A stretch of 64,000 bases of DNA from a virus. A model generated the notes under the pieces. It worked only from the letters and a program-made list of their open reading frames with translations, had not been told where the DNA came from and did not search any database. This document shows positions 8,147 to 28,080 of the stretch, in pieces (positions within the stretch are counted from its first letter, which is position 1; each line of letters starts with the position of its first letter). Location: IMG/VR virus record IMGVR_UViG_3300009481_003844. The stretch is one strand, 5' to 3'. A program made the position numbers and the translations under genes.

Positions 8147-8716
8147 ATGAAAGTTAATCTTCATTGCAGAAATTTTGATCAAGGTGTTAAGGATGCAATT
8201 TATGGTATGGTTGGTTACGGCCTAGCTAAATTGCTTCCTGATCGTGAGAGACTTTTAAATAATGTTGAAATAGATGTACATATGAGGCGCCATGATGATG
8301 GTGGCGAAGCAAGAATTAAACCTGGTACTAATACCTATAGACCAAGAAAGTTTCAAATCATTCTCGACCATCGTAAAATGAATGAAGATGAATATGGTCG
8401 TAGAAGAGGAGATGATGAATGGGTTCATCAGATACTTGAAACTTTGGCTCATGAATTAGTACATATTAAACAATATCTTCTTGGAGAATTAACCTGGAAA
8501 CACGGTAAATTACTTTGGAAAAATCAACATTATATTACAGATGATTTAACAGAATATTTCGAACTACCATATGAAATAGAAGCACATGGTAGACAACGTG
8601 GTTTGTTTTTAGCATTCATTTCAGTTTGGGATGATTTTGTTAAAGACTTAGAAAAAATAGCTAAAGGGGAGACTGAGCAAGTGGCGAGCCCAACTGACTG
8701 TAAATCAGCCGTCTAA
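8147..8716 (+). CDS. Zincin-like metallopeptidase
   Basis: TLAHELVHIKQY (HExxH) and downstream PYEIEAH (third ligand Glu). Confidence 0.75.
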   Translation: MKVNLHCRNFDQGVKDAIYGMVGYGLAKLLPDRERLLNNVEIDVHMRRHDDGGEARIKPGTNTYRPRKFQIILDHRKMNEDEYGRRRGDDEWVHQILETLAHELVHIKQYLLGELTWKHGKLLWKNQHYITDDLTEYFELPYEIEAHGRQRGLFLAFISVWDDFVKDLEKIAKGETEQVASPTDCKSAV

Positions 8717-8750
8717 GACTGTGATGGTTCGACTCCATCTCTCCCCACCA
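8666..8750 (+). tRNA. tRNA-Tyr (GTA), long variable arm
   Basis: GGGGAGA/TCTCCCC acceptor, CT-GTA-AA loop, TTCGACT, CCA; atypical C8 and two stem mismatches. Confidence 0.9.
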
Positions 8751-9285: not shown

Positions 9286-9918
9286 ATGAAAAATGTATTT
9301 TATTTTATTACAGCATTAATTTTAATCGCAGGATGTGCGAACATCGAAGAAGAACATGATGTAGATTCGACTTCAACTTCAACTAATTCAGTTGTAGCTA
9401 CAAGTGGAACAAAATTTTCTAGTCCACGAACTGCATCTATAGATACAAAAGAAATATGGAGAACAGGATGCTATTCTAATCAAAATGCAGAGGAGTTAGA
9501 AGGAAATGAAATAAGAGATAATTCAACCAATTATTTTTCATTTTCATTTGAAGATAATACAATATCTGCTAAAGTGGAAAAATATTCTGATGACAATTGT
9601 TCTGTGAAATATTATTCACATAATGAATTTTTTACTTATTCTATGATAGATTCTTCAAGATTTACAGCAACAAGTGGATCTTTTGTAGAATTGACTCCAC
9701 AATCTAATGAAGCAGTAGACTTTTTTAATAAAAATACTACATGTAAATATGACGAATGGGAGTTAAATGTTACAAAAAAATGTGATAATGAGATTTTAGG
9801 ACTTGAGTCGCAAACTGTTTATTGTTCTTATTATTATGAAGAAAATGCGTTATATTCAACGTGTGATCCTGATGATTATCCCACAGAAGATTATACTGAA
9901 TTTACTAGAATTTATTAA
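9286..9918 (+). CDS. Lipoprotein
   Basis: True start at ATG 9286 (the ORF-track extension runs through the tRNA); MKNVFYFITALILIAG-C lipobox. Confidence 0.75.
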   Translation: MKNVFYFITALILIAGCANIEEEHDVDSTSTSTNSVVATSGTKFSSPRTASIDTKEIWRTGCYSNQNAEELEGNEIRDNSTNYFSFSFEDNTISAKVEKYSDDNCSVKYYSHNEFFTYSMIDSSRFTATSGSFVELTPQSNEAVDFFNKNTTCKYDEWELNVTKKCDNEILGLESQTVYCSYYYEENALYSTCDPDDYPTEDYTEFTRIY

Positions 9919-10010
9919 AAAAACCATTTTTTAGCTTGACAGTCCCACCGGTTTTTGAGATAATATAAGTGAAGGTTAGGAATTCTCCTGACTATTAACC
10001 CCCAAAAGAG
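9918..10010 (+). repeat. Early promoter + hairpin leader cassette, copy 2
   Basis: TTGACA(9936)-17-GATAAT(9959); GTTAGGA/TCCTGAC hairpin; TATTAACCCCCAAAAG. Confidence 0.85.
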
Positions 10011-10020
10011 ATTTTTTATT

Positions 10021-10263
10021 ATGACAAAATCAAAGTTCGTTGCGAAATTGATGAAGAAAGGAGAATTTCTCTCTTCAGGAACGTTTGAATCTTTGGAAGA
10101 AGCAAGATTGTGGGCGATGAAAGAAGCCAAATTGCTGATTTCTGATTTGGAAATGTTGAGAAGCACCAATATTGGTGACATAGTTGTTGAAATTGATAAG
10201 CATTTTACTGAATATGAGATTTCAACTGATGAACTTTTTAAGAATAGTGTGAGGGCAATATGA
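10021..10263 (+). CDS. Hypothetical early protein
   Basis: First ORF after cassette 2. Confidence 0.6.
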   Translation: MTKSKFVAKLMKKGEFLSSGTFESLEEARLWAMKEAKLLISDLEMLRSTNIGDIVVEIDKHFTEYEISTDELFKNSVRAI

Positions 10264-10562
10264 GAAAAACCGTTGCAAATGAAATTTTTAAACAGTTAGG
10301 TGGACAAAAATTTGTTACCATGACAGGAGCCAATAGTTTCATTGATCTTGAGAATGGTATTCGAATGAAGATTGGTCGAAACAAGACCAATGCAAACTTA
10401 TTAGAAGTTGTTCTAAACAGTATGGACACTTACGATGTAACTTTTGCTAAGTTGACTCGTTTGGGTGAGTGGAAGTCGGTTAGAGAATATAAGAATGTTT
10501 ATAATGATTCTCTGGTAGAACTTTTTGAAAGACATACTGGAATGTATACGAAATTATTTTAG
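10260..10562 (+). CDS. Conserved phage hypothetical protein
   Basis: EI..QLGG..F..MTGA, DTYDVTF, HTG.YT.L pattern. Confidence 0.65.
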   Translation: MRKTVANEIFKQLGGQKFVTMTGANSFIDLENGIRMKIGRNKTNANLLEVVLNSMDTYDVTFAKLTRLGEWKSVREYKNVYNDSLVELFERHTGMYTKLF

Positions 10563-10983
10563 GAGAAATTATGAAAATGTTTCTTGAAGAAATTGCAACC
10601 CTAGTATTGTTATTTGGTATAGCATATTTGGCAATACTTTTTATGTTTATTCTTATATAGGAGATTTTATGATAAAATATATTGCAGTTGCTACAGTAGC
10701 TTATATGATATATGCTGGAGTATTTAGTGTTAGCTTTTCTAGTGATGAAGTTGGGGTTGGATTTAATCCCAGTAAAGTTGCTACTAGATTTGTATCTGAT
10801 GTTTCAACTATATTTGAAAGTGTAAAATGAGTATGATAATGTGTAAATATGGGTGTCTAAGTGATACCGATTACTTTCCAGAATTTGGATATGATGTAGT
10901 AACTGGTGAATACACTTGTGAACCTTGCTATGAAAATGAAGAATTTGTAGTTTCAGAAGAAGACGAACTCATTTTTTAATCCA

Positions 10984-11078
10984 AAAAAACCAATTTTTAT
11001 CTTGACACTATGGTGTGGTTTTGAGATAATATAAGTGAAGGTTAGGAATTCTTCCTGACTATTAACCCCCAAAAAGAA
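10984..11078 (+). repeat. Early promoter + hairpin leader cassette, copy 3
   Basis: TTGACA(11002)-17-GATAAT(11025); GTTAGGA/TCCTGAC hairpin; TATTAACCCCCAAAAAG. Confidence 0.85.
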
Positions 11079-11084
11079 ATTATT

Positions 11085-11324
11085 ATGAATGCTAGTTTGA
11101 ATCATGCACTTGAAAAAGAAGTGACCCACGCAAGAAAATTTAAACTGAGAAAACTCAAAATGGTTTGTAATGAACTTGAAGCCGCAGAACGAAAAGTTGA
11201 TGAACTTAGAGGCGTTAAGTGGGGTTTGGTTACTGATCTCAAAAATTTAGGTCACGATTTTACAGCCACTACTGAGGGCATGGATATAGTTTTGTCTTCT
11301 TCACCTTCTTTTAATTGGAGTTAA
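11085..11324 (+). CDS. Hypothetical early protein (coiled coil)
   Basis: First ORF after cassette 3. Confidence 0.55.
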   Translation: MNASLNHALEKEVTHARKFKLRKLKMVCNELEAAERKVDELRGVKWGLVTDLKNLGHDFTATTEGMDIVLSSSPSFNWS

Positions 11325-11326
11325 TT

Positions 11327-11881
11327 ATGAGTACAAATAGTTTAGTAGCGTATTTAAGTAATGATGGAACAGTTACTACATCCTATGTGCATTGGGATGG
11401 AAATACAACAAGTGTTGGATGGACTTTGTTAGAACATTACAATACTGCAGAAAAAGCAAAGGAATTAGCTACAACTTTGGGTTATGCATCTTCCTTGTAT
11501 GAAACAATTGAAAAGTCTCATGCAGATCGTGCAAATACAGATGAAGCAATAGTTTACGAAAATTATCTTGATTTTGAGGAGTACATTCGTGAAAGTTCTT
11601 TTCTTGAGTATGTTTATATTTGGGTAGAACATAGAAATGAGTGGCAAGTTGCTACTTGGGAACACACAAAACTAGATACTATATCAGACGAAGGATTAGA
11701 ATTCCGATATGATTGGAATGGGTTTGGACTGCTGACTGATGTATTTACAAATGAAGCTGTTGAAGCTATAAAACGATTTAGAGACATTGCAGACAAAGGA
11801 AATTCTGATTATATAGGTTATGCAGAAGAACTGGAAGCAGGAATTTTAAAATATGCAATTGAAGAAACGACTTATGCTTAG
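11327..11881 (+). CDS. Conserved phage protein (Y.HWDG family)
   Basis: SYVHWDG...VG.TL.EHYNT motif; GGAG RBS before ATG 11327. Confidence 0.65.
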   Translation: MSTNSLVAYLSNDGTVTTSYVHWDGNTTSVGWTLLEHYNTAEKAKELATTLGYASSLYETIEKSHADRANTDEAIVYENYLDFEEYIRESSFLEYVYIWVEHRNEWQVATWEHTKLDTISDEGLEFRYDWNGFGLLTDVFTNEAVEAIKRFRDIADKGNSDYIGYAEELEAGILKYAIEETTYA

Positions 11882-12071
11882 AATAAATATTGTTCGTGAA
11901 ATTTTTATTTTGCTTATTGCTCTTTTAATAATAAGTTATATTGCAAGCAGAATAAGTATTGAATATTACAATTTCATAAAGTATCATTTTATTTTGGGAT
12001 GTAGATATATGGAACTCCCACATGAAGTTTGGGCGTTCATGGATAAATATCTTTTCGAAGGACAATTATGA
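11874..12071 (+). CDS. Small membrane protein
   Basis: N-terminal hydrophobic helix; stop abuts tRNA-Asn. Confidence 0.5.
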   Translation: MLRINIVREIFILLIALLIISYIASRISIEYYNFIKYHFILGCRYMELPHEVWAFMDKYLFEGQL

Positions 12072-12146
12072 TCCCTCGTAGTTCAGTGGTAGAACGGTAG
12101 ACTGTTAATCTGCTTGTCGTTGGTTCGAATCCAGCCGAGGGAGCCA
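12072..12146 (+). tRNA. tRNA-Asn (GTT)
   Basis: TCCCTCG/CGAGGGA, CT-GTT-AA loop, TTCGAAT, CCA. Confidence 0.95.
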
Positions 12147-12175
12147 CTAGAATAAATACTTAATAGGAATTAATT

Positions 12176-12610
12176 ATGTTTGTAAAGATGGGTTCTCCTG
12201 CTAGAAAAAACAGAGCCTTTCATGTAAATATTGATAATCATGATGTTTGGAATTTAGATTCCACTCTTGCTCATATTATTCATCCTGCTCTTGTTCGTTT
12301 AAGGGAACGTGTACCACATTTTGGTTATCCAACCCCTTATGATGAAACAGAAGCATATCCAGAGCATTATTCTCAAGGATCATTTGAAGAAATTTTGGAT
12401 CGTGATGCAGAGAGCAAGTATTATGAAGAACTATGGATGGACAAACTTCAGAAAATGATTGATGCATTTGCAATGATTATTGATAAAGATGAAGACTATG
12501 ATGTTATTGCTCACCACGTAGATTATAAAGATGCAAGAAAAGCATGGTGGGATAAGATTGACGAAGGTCTGAATCTTTTCGCAGAGCATTATCAAGGTCT
12601 TTGGGATTAA
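12176..12610 (+). CDS. Conserved T4-like phage hypothetical protein
   Basis: D.WNLDSTLAHII.P.L..L...GYP...W...L.KMI.AF...EGL.LF.E.Y..LWD pattern. Confidence 0.65.
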   Translation: MFVKMGSPARKNRAFHVNIDNHDVWNLDSTLAHIIHPALVRLRERVPHFGYPTPYDETEAYPEHYSQGSFEEILDRDAESKYYEELWMDKLQKMIDAFAMIIDKDEDYDVIAHHVDYKDARKAWWDKIDEGLNLFAEHYQGLWD

Positions 12611-12637
12611 AAATAAATTAAAATCCGAAAGGGGAGT

Positions 12638-12886
12638 ATGTTTGTACTTAAATATTGTGGTTCTTGAAATTATAGACCACAAGCAGAAAGTCTTTCCGCT
12701 AATATTAATAAATCTTTACTAGATACATGCGAAATTGAACAAGGAACAAAGGGCCAATTTGATTTATATCGAAACGGTGAATTGTTTTTAAGTAAAGATG
12801 AATTACAGAAATTTTTTACTTTTGAGGATGTACAATTCAAGTTGAAAGAGAAAGGACTTGGATTTTGGATGGAAAATTTGCGATAA
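12638..12886 (+). CDS. SelW/SelT/SelH (Rdx-family) selenoprotein, Sec encoded by in-frame TGA at 12665-12667
   Basis: GGGGAG RBS; MFVLKYCGS-U-NYRPQAESL...IEQGTKGQFDLYRNGELFLSK...; CxxU plus the C-terminal G.F.(V/L)..NG.L..SK Rdx motif; frame stays open 72 codons past the TGA. Confidence 0.85.
12668..12705 (+). promoter_or_regulatory. Putative bacterial SECIS hairpin
   Basis: AGC-A-GAAA/TTTC-C-GCT stem (12682-12700) with apical G at 12690, 23 nt after the UGA. Confidence 0.55.
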
Positions 12887-12889
12887 TGG

Positions 12890-12918
12890 TTGCTTTTTTT
12901 CTGATTTATTGCTATAAT
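12890..12918 (+). promoter_or_regulatory. Sigma70 promoter with extended -10
   Basis: TTGCTT-17-TATAAT with TG at 12910-12911. Confidence 0.6.
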
Positions 12919-12937
12919 AATCTAATATAAGATTAAC

Positions 12938-13156
12938 ATGCCAAAAAAATATAAAAAGAAATTTAAAATATCAAGAGATGATCTGAATGTCAAAATTAAT
13001 GAATATTTGGAAAAGGGTGGGAAGATCACAAAACTGGAATGTATTATACCAGAACGACCTAGGACTGTACGGCAAGAAAGTCAAATGAAGAGTTTTAACA
13101 CTCCTGTAGTAGATCAAGATTTTTATGCTAGAGGAGCAGAAAAAGAAGCTGGATGA
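12938..13156 (+). CDS. Hypothetical basic protein
   Basis: INEYLEKGGKITKL motif common in phage small proteins. Confidence 0.55.
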   Translation: MPKKYKKKFKISRDDLNVKINEYLEKGGKITKLECIIPERPRTVRQESQMKSFNTPVVDQDFYARGAEKEAG

Positions 13157-13389
13157 AAATATTTATTTATCGTATTCCGATGTTATTAATGGGTTTTATA
13201 ACATCGGTTTTAGTAATTTTAAAATTGACAGATAAAATAAGTTGGAGTTGGAATGATGTGTTTCTTCCACTTCAGCTTTTTGTTATTTTGGGTGTATTTT
13301 TTGCACTTATACTTGTCTACTTAGACATAAAAAAGAAAAATTCTAAGAATTTTAACTTTTATTCCTTTAAGAGAAAAAAGAATAAATAA
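13153..13389 (+). CDS. Small membrane protein (2 TM)
   Basis: LVILKLTDKISWSW..VFLPL pattern. Confidence 0.6.
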   Translation: MKIFIYRIPMLLMGFITSVLVILKLTDKISWSWNDVFLPLQLFVILGVFFALILVYLDIKKKNSKNFNFYSFKRKKNK

Positions 13390-13409
13390 TAGAACAAGTT
13401 TTCAAAAAT

Positions 13410-13470
13410 GGCGCAGGGAGGTCTGAATGGACTAATGGATCTGCACCCCCACCATTCAGGCCGCGCCCCA
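13410..13470 (+). ncRNA. Candidate small GC-rich hairpin RNA ending in CCA
   Basis: GGCGC/GCGCC and GGTCTGAATGG/CCATTCAGGCC stems, 3' CCA, intergenic. Confidence 0.5.
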
Positions 13471-13502
13471 CTACATAATCATTATATTATCAGGAGTTAA
13501 TA

Positions 13503-13757
13503 ATGTTGGGTTTTCCGACAACAAGAATAGAACTATTCTTTAGACCAGATCAAGATTGCTTGTTGGCACTTGAACCTGATGGTACATTTCATGAATTTGA
13601 TGTTAGAATGTTGCGAGAAGCAAAAGAATTATTTTCACGTTATCATGAAGCACATTTTCATGAAGAAGATAATTTAGACGAATTTCATGAGTTTTGTGGA
13701 AGAATGCAGGAGGAAAGTCCTGAAATGGAAGGAGTTATGTCTCCATATCTAAATTAA
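13503..13757 (+). CDS. Hypothetical acidic protein
   Basis: AGGAG RBS, 84 aa. Confidence 0.55.
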   Translation: MLGFPTTRIELFFRPDQDCLLALEPDGTFHEFDVRMLREAKELFSRYHEAHFHEEDNLDEFHEFCGRMQEESPEMEGVMSPYLN

Positions 13758-13767
13758 AAGGAGATCG

Positions 13768-13956
13768 ATGATAAAATTTATAGAAACATTTCAAAATAAA
13801 TTTATTAAAAAAGAAGAGTATGATGTAGAAATAGAACGGAATAAAAAATACGAAGTTAGATGGGTTTGGTATCATACAATTTTAGCAATAGAATTGTTAA
13901 TAACTAATGTTTTATTAATATGGATATTATTTAAAATATATGACTTACATACTTAG
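13768..13956 (+). CDS. Small membrane protein
   Basis: AAGGAG RBS; C-terminal TM helix. Confidence 0.55.
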   Translation: MIKFIETFQNKFIKKEEYDVEIERNKKYEVRWVWYHTILAIELLITNVLLIWILFKIYDLHT

Positions 13957-27067: not shown

Positions 27068-28080
27068 TGGACGTTAATTCTCATAATGATTGGGATTCTC
27101 TTGAAGAAATAATTGTAGGTCGTGCAGATTTTGCACATATTCCTCCAGTGGATTCTTCAATGAAAAATTTCATGTTTGCAAATCTGTCAAATGAAGAAAT
27201 AAAAAAACATGTTGGATCATATAATCAGGATCTTCTTAAAGAAGCAAATGAGGATCTTGATATTTTATCTGAAGTATTGGAAGATTGTGGAGTTGTAGTT
27301 CATAGACCAGAAAGAACACAACATCATCAGCGAATTCAGACTCCAAAATGGAGAACTACTGGTTGGCATAATTATTGTCCCAGAGATATTTTTTTAATTT
27401 TGGGAAATAATATTATCGAAGTTCCTAGTGTTATGAGAAGTCGGGTGTTTGAAACTTGGTCTTATAATACAATTTTACACAAAGCATTTGAAGATGGTGC
27501 AAGATGGTTTTCTGCACCAAAGCAAATTATTAAAGATGAAAGTTTTGATTTTTCAGATTTATCAAAACCAACATTAATGAACAATGAGATTCTTTTTGAT
27601 GCCCCTAATGTAATAAGAATTAATAAAGATTTAATTTTTCAAATAAGTAATAGTGGGAATGAAAAAGGAGCCGAATGGTTAGAAAGAATGTTTCCTGAAT
27701 ATAAAATTCATATTGAACATGATGCATATTCAGGCGCCCATTTTGATAGTACAATAATTCCTTTAAGAGAAGGACTTGTATTATTAAATGGACTAAGATG
27801 TAATCAAGATAATTATCCTAAATTTTTTGATGATTGGGAAAGAATATTTTTTACTGATATTATTTCAACTAATTCTGAAGACTCTGGAATATCAAGCGAT
27901 TCAATTGGATTAAATTTATTAAACATTAATCCCAATTTAGTCATTGTTGATGAAAATCAAAAACCATTAATAAAAATTTTAGAACAATATAAAATAGATA
28001 GTATACCTTTATCTATGAAACATGCAAGAACATTAGGCGGTGGTTTCCACTGTGTAACATTGGATTTAAAGAGAAAATGA
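27067..28080 (+). CDS. Amidinotransferase (glycine/inosamine-phosphate amidinotransferase family)
   Basis: NSHNDWD.LEEIIVGRA, CPRD, LFDA (Asp), HFDST (His), RTLGGGFHC (Cys). Confidence 0.92.
   Translation: MDVNSHNDWDSLEEIIVGRADFAHIPPVDSSMKNFMFANLSNEEIKKHVGSYNQDLLKEANEDLDILSEVLEDCGVVVHRPERTQHHQRIQTPKWRTTGWHNYCPRDIFLILGNNIIEVPSVMRSRVFETWSYNTILHKAFEDGARWFSAPKQIIKDESFDFSDLSKPTLMNNEILFDAPNVIRINKDLIFQISNSGNEKGAEWLERMFPEYKIHIEHDAYSGAHFDSTIIPLREGLVLLNGLRCNQDNYPKFFDDWERIFFTDIISTNSEDSGISSDSIGLNLLNINPNLVIVDENQKPLIKILEQYKIDSIPLSMKHARTLGGGFHCVTLDLKRK

Follow-up and report, generated by a model that had tools for sequence, protein, structure and literature searches.

Among cellular organisms, selenoprotein genes occur in bacteria, archaea and eukaryotes; among viruses, they are known from a few that infect eukaryotes, as the glutathione-peroxidase (GPx) homologues of molluscum contagiosum and fowlpox viruses. 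Among bacteriophages, T4 NrdC and NrdH-like proteins represent phage thioredoxins and glutaredoxins. Virus-encoded selenoproteins have been described for eukaryotic viruses (PMC6769590, PMC1802603), and a marine trace-element survey reported selenoprotein families with few or no viral sequences (PMC9402790). In the Global Ocean Sampling data, the SelW-like family comprised 427 forms with selenocysteine (Sec) against 56 with Cys (PMC2398784). Here we analyse a gene at positions 12638-12886 on the plus strand of a 64,000-nucleotide stretch of viral DNA (IMG/VR record IMGVR_UViG_3300009481_003844, hereafter the window, to which all unlabelled coordinates refer). We conclude, with a probability of roughly 0.85, that it is a phage selenoprotein gene of the Rdx/SelW type, dependent on a selenocysteine insertion sequence (SECIS).

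Like the eukaryotic viral GPx genes, this locus would combine a virus-encoded selenoprotein with a SECIS in cis and draw on the Sec machinery of the host. It differs from them in its bacteriophage carrier, in encoding an Rdx protein instead of a GPx and in presenting a bacterial-type SECIS within the coding region, where the eukaryotic viruses use a eukaryotic-type element. With phage thioredoxins and glutaredoxins the product shares the format of a small thioredoxin-fold redox protein of large lytic phages and probably a comparable auxiliary role, whereas those proteins are Cys-only CxxC members of other families. The novelty lies in the phage carrier and in the finding of an entire phage clade that uses Sec almost exclusively; the family, the fold and the recoding mechanism were already known.

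The sequence-only reading of the window had proposed a gene hidden by a UGA codon at the U of a CxxU motif, and its frame, length and coordinates stand as described. The frame opens with the ATG at 12638 and extends over 82 codons to a TAA at 12884-12886, reading M-F-V-L-K-Y-C-G-S-[TGA]-N-Y-R-P-Q-A-E-S-L and onwards. The TGA at 12665-12667 is the sole in-frame stop and falls exactly at the U of C-x-x-U, the C-G-S-U motif spanning 12656-12667 with Cys7 (TGT) at 12656-12658 and the putative Sec10 at the TGA. A Shine-Dalgarno-like AAAGGGGAG element can be read directly at 12628-12636, ahead of the ATG, and purine-rich motifs of this kind precede the start in nearly all of the 41 viral relatives described below, which places initiation upstream of the TGA. 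Under standard calling the region 12611-12937 is devoid of open reading frames (ORFs), save for one of 34 residues with a TTG start. A scan of the uncalled DNA in the 64 kb for ORFs concealed by one or two in-frame TGAs returned the Rdx gene and a single artefact that overlaps it out of frame.

The read-through product belongs to the Rdx family by sequence, by motif and by fold, as the sequence-only reading had suggested. In profile searches, which were run with Cys substituted for Sec (U scored as C), it scored 33.1 bits with the Pfam Rdx hidden Markov model (PF10262; gathering score 22.6), residues 5-65 aligning to positions 5-68 of the 74 in the profile, and the same family was matched individually by 31 of the 32 members of the clade alignment. 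An AlphaFold2 model computed from this alignment (predicted local distance difference test score 89.4) presents a b1-a1-b2-b3-b4-a2 topology, with beta1 at residues 2-6, the CxxU turn at the beta1/alpha1 junction and alpha1 at 13-26, followed by beta2-4 and alpha2. The best 21 PDB matches returned by Foldseek were all bacterial SelW-related structures (2p0g, 2fa8, 3dex, 2ojl, 2obk and 2oka), the top ones with template-modelling scores of up to 0.80 and root-mean-square deviations of 1.6-1.7 A, followed by mouse SelW (2npb) and MIEN1 (2ljk). A sequence search of PDB returned only MIEN1, with an E-value of 0.46. The gene resembles cellular Rdx/SelW selenoproteins in the place of CxxU, in the fold, in the hairpin directly after the UGA and in the bias towards Sec over Cys. 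It differs from them in residing on phage genomes and in forming a clade of its own (70-116 bits, as opposed to at most 61 for cellular CxxC forms), which has no Cys form and falls just under the NCBIfam cut-offs.

Conservation of the TGA was assessed with a translation-independent scan of IMG/VR, which identified 41 viral contigs carrying a relative of the gene. The C-x-x-TGA arrangement is present in 36 of these 41 loci; the remaining five show a clean deletion of the two codons for U and N, and the Cys form occurs in none. Cys7 is invariant among the relatives, and nearly all metagenome contigs from ENA with relatives also present TGA at the same codon. A profile search of 1.84 billion representatives recovered 276 relatives. 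Those nearest to the phage clade read CxxW (from TGA), carried R or had the deletion, and genuine CxxC proteins came only with lower scores, among typical bacterial sequences. The interchange of Cys and Sec anticipated for homologues was found among the wider relatives, with 67 CxxC forms in the best 150, and not within the phage clade itself. Sequencing error was rejected as a source of the codon. Over 40 independent assemblies contain the TGA; four independent sequencing runs showed no variant at 12665-12667, TGT and TGC included, and a contig from these runs matches the window exactly over 12035-12680.

The 13 homologues in databases are all given with W at the Sec position, as would be expected if these phages used an alternative code throughout, with TGA read as Trp or Gly (tables 4/25). 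The DNA behind this W is TGA, read under code 4 by gene callers on short contigs ('with_TGA=W'). Furthermore, TGA is the commonest stop among the 74 plus-strand ORFs of at least 100 residues in the window (TGA 31, TAA 28, TAG 15), frequently within ATGA overlaps, and reading through these stops yields only short extensions. Genome-wide recoding under table 4 was accordingly rejected, given that TGA ends 31 of the 74 long ORFs and that a single TGA-interrupted hidden ORF exists in 64 kb, and an alternative code is hardly credible for this phage.

The frame is maintained by selection on both sides of the TGA. About 45 viral contigs with a relative, at identities down to 40%, keep it intact and preserve both the TGA codon and the hairpin. 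The ratio of non-synonymous to synonymous substitution rates (dN/dS; pooled Nei-Gojobori) amounts to 0.24 over the nine codons that precede the TGA and to 0.25 over those that follow it. These values exclude termination and decay. If the UGA did terminate translation, the locus would be a decaying pseudogene or would encode a nine-residue leader peptide with an untranslated downstream frame, a scenario that agrees with the way standard gene callers stop at the TGA and with the lack of significance of the hairpin of the window when taken alone. Against it, the 72 downstream codons evolve under the constraint just described and fold confidently as Rdx, they contain no internal start, and the frame persists across all those relatives. 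A pseudogene was rejected on the grounds of dN/dS and intact frames, and we regard termination at the UGA as very improbable.

The sequence-only reading had also called a bacterial-type SECIS with an apical G 23 nt after the UGA, a prediction that proved exact in position. In the window, the hairpin extends from A12682 to T12700, with an eight-pair stem that includes an A.C mismatch (12685/12697) and a GUC loop at 12690-12692 (G12690-T-C12692), whose G is the 23rd base after the UGA. A hairpin folds at the same columns in every TGA-bearing relative, with energies of -3.8 to -9.5 kcal/mol and a uniform geometry: it starts 15 nt after the UGA and has a stem of 7-8 bp and a 3-nt loop. The loop sequences are GUC (19), GUU (8), GGC (6) and GUA (1), the first G being invariant. 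In common with bacterial SECIS elements, the phage hairpin is short, begins 15 nt past the UGA and carries a small apical loop whose first base is an invariant G. The phage element departs from them in its 3-nt loop, its AU-rich stem of 7-8 bp and, in the lineage of the window, the A.C mismatch, and its binding by SelB is putative.

The stem is encoded by the codons for Q-A-E-S-L-S-A, and its pairing is selected beyond the protein sequence. Two of the stem columns, 21 and 33, correspond to third codon positions with four-fold degeneracy (Ala GCN and Ser TCN), and they combine in distinct sequences as A-U (24), G-C (5), C-G (1) and G-U (1), with three mispairs (Fisher p=5e-5, not corrected for phylogeny). 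On a maximum-likelihood protein tree, G-C must have arisen four separate times, as branches with good support dictate, and C-G once, amounting to five independent compensatory switches. The covariation score of the stem was 0.174, compared with 0.109 for shuffled alignments; it was reached by none of 500 shuffles and dropped when the 3' partners were slid. Moreover, the synonymous rate in the hairpin codons is 0.67, one third of the 1.98 obtained for the codons beyond them. The variants lacking the U-N codons, taken as a control for relaxation of the hairpin, gave an ambiguous outcome, with -2.6 kcal/mol in L030 and -8.0 kcal/mol retained in L035.

Departures from the TGA are rare. One contig has a TGG (Trp) allele (L006:41-43) in a population whose other contigs have TGA, and two contigs from different samples share a CGA (Arg) allele (L074:226-228 and L075:226-228). 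Each allele is one substitution away from TGA, with the hairpin intact, and the downstream decay that would be expected of a Trp codon or a truncation in a pseudogene is not seen in either of them. The five deletion loci (L030:4181-4405, L031, L032:5758-5982, L035:1069-1293 and L037:6001-6225) form a monophyletic subclade in which C-S-S-[U-N]-Y-Y has become C-S-S-Y-Y or H-C-K-N-Y-Y, with Cys7 and the frame kept; the deletion may have adapted these phages to hosts that do not decode Sec. No TGT or TGC allele was seen at the Sec codon anywhere in the phage clade.

That the known sense alleles specify Trp and Arg, and never Cys, would also fit a UGA read without Sec, by a near-cognate tRNA (Trp, Cys or Arg) or by a phage suppressor tRNA, with the hairpin serving as a read-through stimulator. 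A suppressor tRNA could moreover lie elsewhere in the genome, of which 64 kb out of some 180-300 kb are visible. Such a tRNA would not spare the 31 TGA stops in neighbouring genes, and a TCA anticodon is absent from all tRNAs identified in the window and in 43 related loci. In addition, the codon coincides exactly with the Cys/Sec residue of the Rdx family, whose marine members mostly use Sec, and it is followed by a hairpin with SECIS geometry and an invariant loop G, an arrangement that a cellular Sec homologue reproduces. Decoding of this UGA without Sec is hence unlikely, and Sec is the residue most probably inserted.

Several observations weigh against a SECIS-dependent selenoprotein. Besides the rare Trp (TGG) and Arg (CGA) alleles, the subclade without U-N codons and the absence of a Cys form, the hairpin of the window is weak (-3.8 kcal/mol, z-score -0.87, with the A.C mismatch) and does not rise above chance on its own, so that the weight of the argument rests on the family comparison; the mismatch is common to the window, L051, L087 and L088, a lineage in which TGA and frame are kept. 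The product does not reach the NCBIfam cut-offs for TIGR02174 (CXXU_selWTH; 30.6 against 34.2) or NF041051 (SelTWH_Campy; 48.4 against 88), and the phage Rdx proteins, judging from their sequences, make up a divergent clade outside these curated sub-models. The availability of Sec machinery in the host is presumed. As regards expression, short Logan contigs from two metatranscriptomic libraries (X18 and X19) align to 12648-12700, comprising the TGA and the hairpin; beyond this segment, the overhanging sequence corresponds to further members of the phage Rdx clade. These contigs hint that relatives are transcribed and are also compatible with DNA carry-over.

A selenoprotein gene implicitly entails a source of Sec machinery. 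No tRNA-Sec was identified in the window, in the 43 related loci or in the five longest viral records, and tblastn searches of phage DNA did not return SelA, SelB or SelD. Decoding would therefore have to rely on the host, in agreement with the dependence on host SelA/B/C/D put forward in the sequence-only reading. Under the proposed mechanism, ribosomes would start at the ATG at 12638, and the mRNA hairpin at 12682-12700 would recruit the host SelB.GTP.Sec-tRNA(Sec) complex at the UGA at 12665. With Sec inserted, the Cys7-x-x-Sec10 redox centre would be complete, situated where beta1 meets alpha1 in the thioredoxin-like fold. The phage would contribute the gene and the SECIS only, with tRNA-Sec, SelA, SelB and SelD supplied by a host whose machinery is presumably exploited, and productive expression would be limited to Sec-decoding hosts. 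The product, of 82 residues, is most likely a small thiol/selenol oxidoreductase with an auxiliary redox function. By analogy with phage thioredoxins and glutaredoxins, our guess would be a general role in disulfide or peroxide handling, or as a reductant, during infection.

A possible indication of the host comes from a contig of 28 kb (L051, PAAV01000009.1), binned in a Chloroflexota metagenome-assembled genome (MAG; G001), that matches window positions 9917-13940 with 96.5% identity. This MAG, with about 39% GC, encodes tRNA-Sec (61.8 bits; ARAGORN SeC-tca; L053), SelA (L070), SelB (L062) and a SelD that itself has an in-frame TGA for Sec (L076). It also harbours an uncalled Rdx selenoprotein of its own (L061:1477-1746, minus strand; G001:C58), with 89 residues and a C-V-P-U motif, only 32% identical to the phage protein. 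Its hairpin (-10.4 kcal/mol) lies at the same offset and includes the same CCACAGGCAG stretch as the phage gene. As a host, this MAG is a weak lead based on binning. According to BSepDB, marine Dehalococcoidia are among the most selenoprotein-rich bacteria. A second relative (L052, JAKUSK010000076.1) was found in a Nitrososphaerales MAG, surely through mis-binning, and both matches look like phage contigs binned into MAGs. The scan of MAG contigs used clade-specific patterns, one of them with an artefactual W, and says little on cellular relatives.

The window itself belongs to an uncultured marine T4-like myophage. It has 29% GC, four tRNAs and all of its long ORFs on one strand, and it encodes a T4-type RNase H (Pfam 5_3_exonuc_N and RNaseH_C) that is 48% identical to those of OM43 and cyanobacterial myophages and less than 50% identical to that of any cultured phage. 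A phage exonuclease, ClpP, 2OG-Fe(II) oxygenases and several PHROG-only families, including those on both flanks of the Rdx gene, were also identified. The IMG/VR viral contigs that carry relatives of the gene reach 84 kb in length; CheckV puts their completeness at 13-46%, which implies genomes of roughly 180-300 kb. A megablast search with 8 kb of the window against deposited phages returned no match.

It could be argued that the DNA is cellular, for instance a Chloroflexota island with an ordinary bacterial SelW-like gene, in line with the nearly identical 4-kb stretch in the Chloroflexota MAG and with a biosynthetic island of about 45 kb that is unusual for phages. This is difficult to reconcile with the T4-type RNase H, the exonuclease, the many PHROG-only families, the four tRNAs and the single-strand arrangement of the genes. 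Furthermore, the GC content is 29%, as opposed to about 39% in the MAG, the Rdx gene of the MAG is separate and only distantly similar, and the 41 relatives reside on IMG/VR viral contigs. A cellular origin is consequently quite improbable.

The phage clade is largely absent from existing resources. PHROGs contains no family for the Rdx product, tblastn searches with three Rdx queries against 50,697 deposited phage genomes returned no match, and a fold search of BFVD yielded no Rdx-type match, the best hits (E-value 0.02) being generic thioredoxins. In the ESM Atlas, clusters with viral members are automatically named 'Rdx family domain-containing protein' and are not labelled as selenoproteins. 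The deep-Sep and BSepDB papers, which present bacterial selenoprotein tools and a database from 2025-26, leave phages unmentioned, and full-text searches, within the literature covered, found no report of a phage Rdx/SelW selenoprotein, a result that is not proof of novelty.

We see about an even chance that the marine T4-like phages with this gene, most of which come from deep water according to the sample names, constitute a widespread clade of long standing, that their SelW-like oxidoreductase, encoded together with its SECIS, contains Sec obligately, and that these are the first bacteriophage selenoproteins. If so, phages would parasitise the Sec-recoding machinery of their hosts, and auxiliary genes could depend on host recoding. 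The gene would mark hosts as Sec-decoders, thereby providing a simple predictor of host range, and a change to hosts that do not use Sec would be signalled by the Sec-codon deletion subclade and by the rare sense alleles. The most abundant 'bacterial' selenoprotein family of the ocean would then be viral in part, so that existing counts may include a viral share, and genes of this type would be systematically hidden by gene callers.

The neighbourhood of the gene consists of small phage ORFs. An ORF of 144 residues at 12176-12610 (plus strand), matching the unknown-function family phrog_11543 (E-value 2.4e-16), ends 27 nt before the Rdx start and is syntenic in nine loci. A tRNA-Asn(GTT) gene at 12072-12146 (plus strand), called by both ARAGORN and Rfam, is a conserved upstream neighbour in the close clade, and in L010-L015 and L051, too, the Rdx gene is preceded by tRNA-Asn at a distance of about 500 nt. 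The four tRNAs of the window are those reported by ARAGORN, Rfam reporting three; a tRNA-Tyr called by ARAGORN at 8666-8750 overlaps the end of the ORF at 8147-8716 and was not reported by Rfam at its gathering score. In one related viral contig, ARAGORN also called a tRNA-like gene (L033:3586-3658), which follows the Rdx gene at a distance of about 1.3 kb and whose two-base anticodon (cc) is undetermined.

A promoter had been proposed immediately after the stop codon. Read directly from the DNA, a possible promoter for the next small genes extends over 12890-12918 on the plus strand, with TTGCTT, a 17-nt spacer and TG-n-TATAAT. Its extended -10 element is perfect (TGcTATAAT, 12910-12918), but the -35 element (TTGCTT, 12890-12895) matches only three of six positions and the candidate falls below the threshold of a consensus scan. 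It lies outside the selenoprotein claim.

The suggestion that the product provides redox support for an island of Fe-S enzymes found no support. Some 8 kb separate the Rdx gene from the start of the island downstream, whose first Pfam-confirmed radical SAM ORF is at 28077, and the two are not consistently linked; the conserved neighbours have no known function, and the gene-neighbourhood analysis found no redox partner or enzyme travelling with the Rdx gene. The island itself is a block of about 45 kb at 20000-64000, with 25-29% GC and tightly overlapping genes, large for a biosynthetic island in a phage. Its genes include at least three radical SAM enzymes (one B12-binding and one SPASM), a tryptophan halogenase and a carbamoyltransferase. 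In one of the related loci, L041, a halogenase is located near the Rdx gene.
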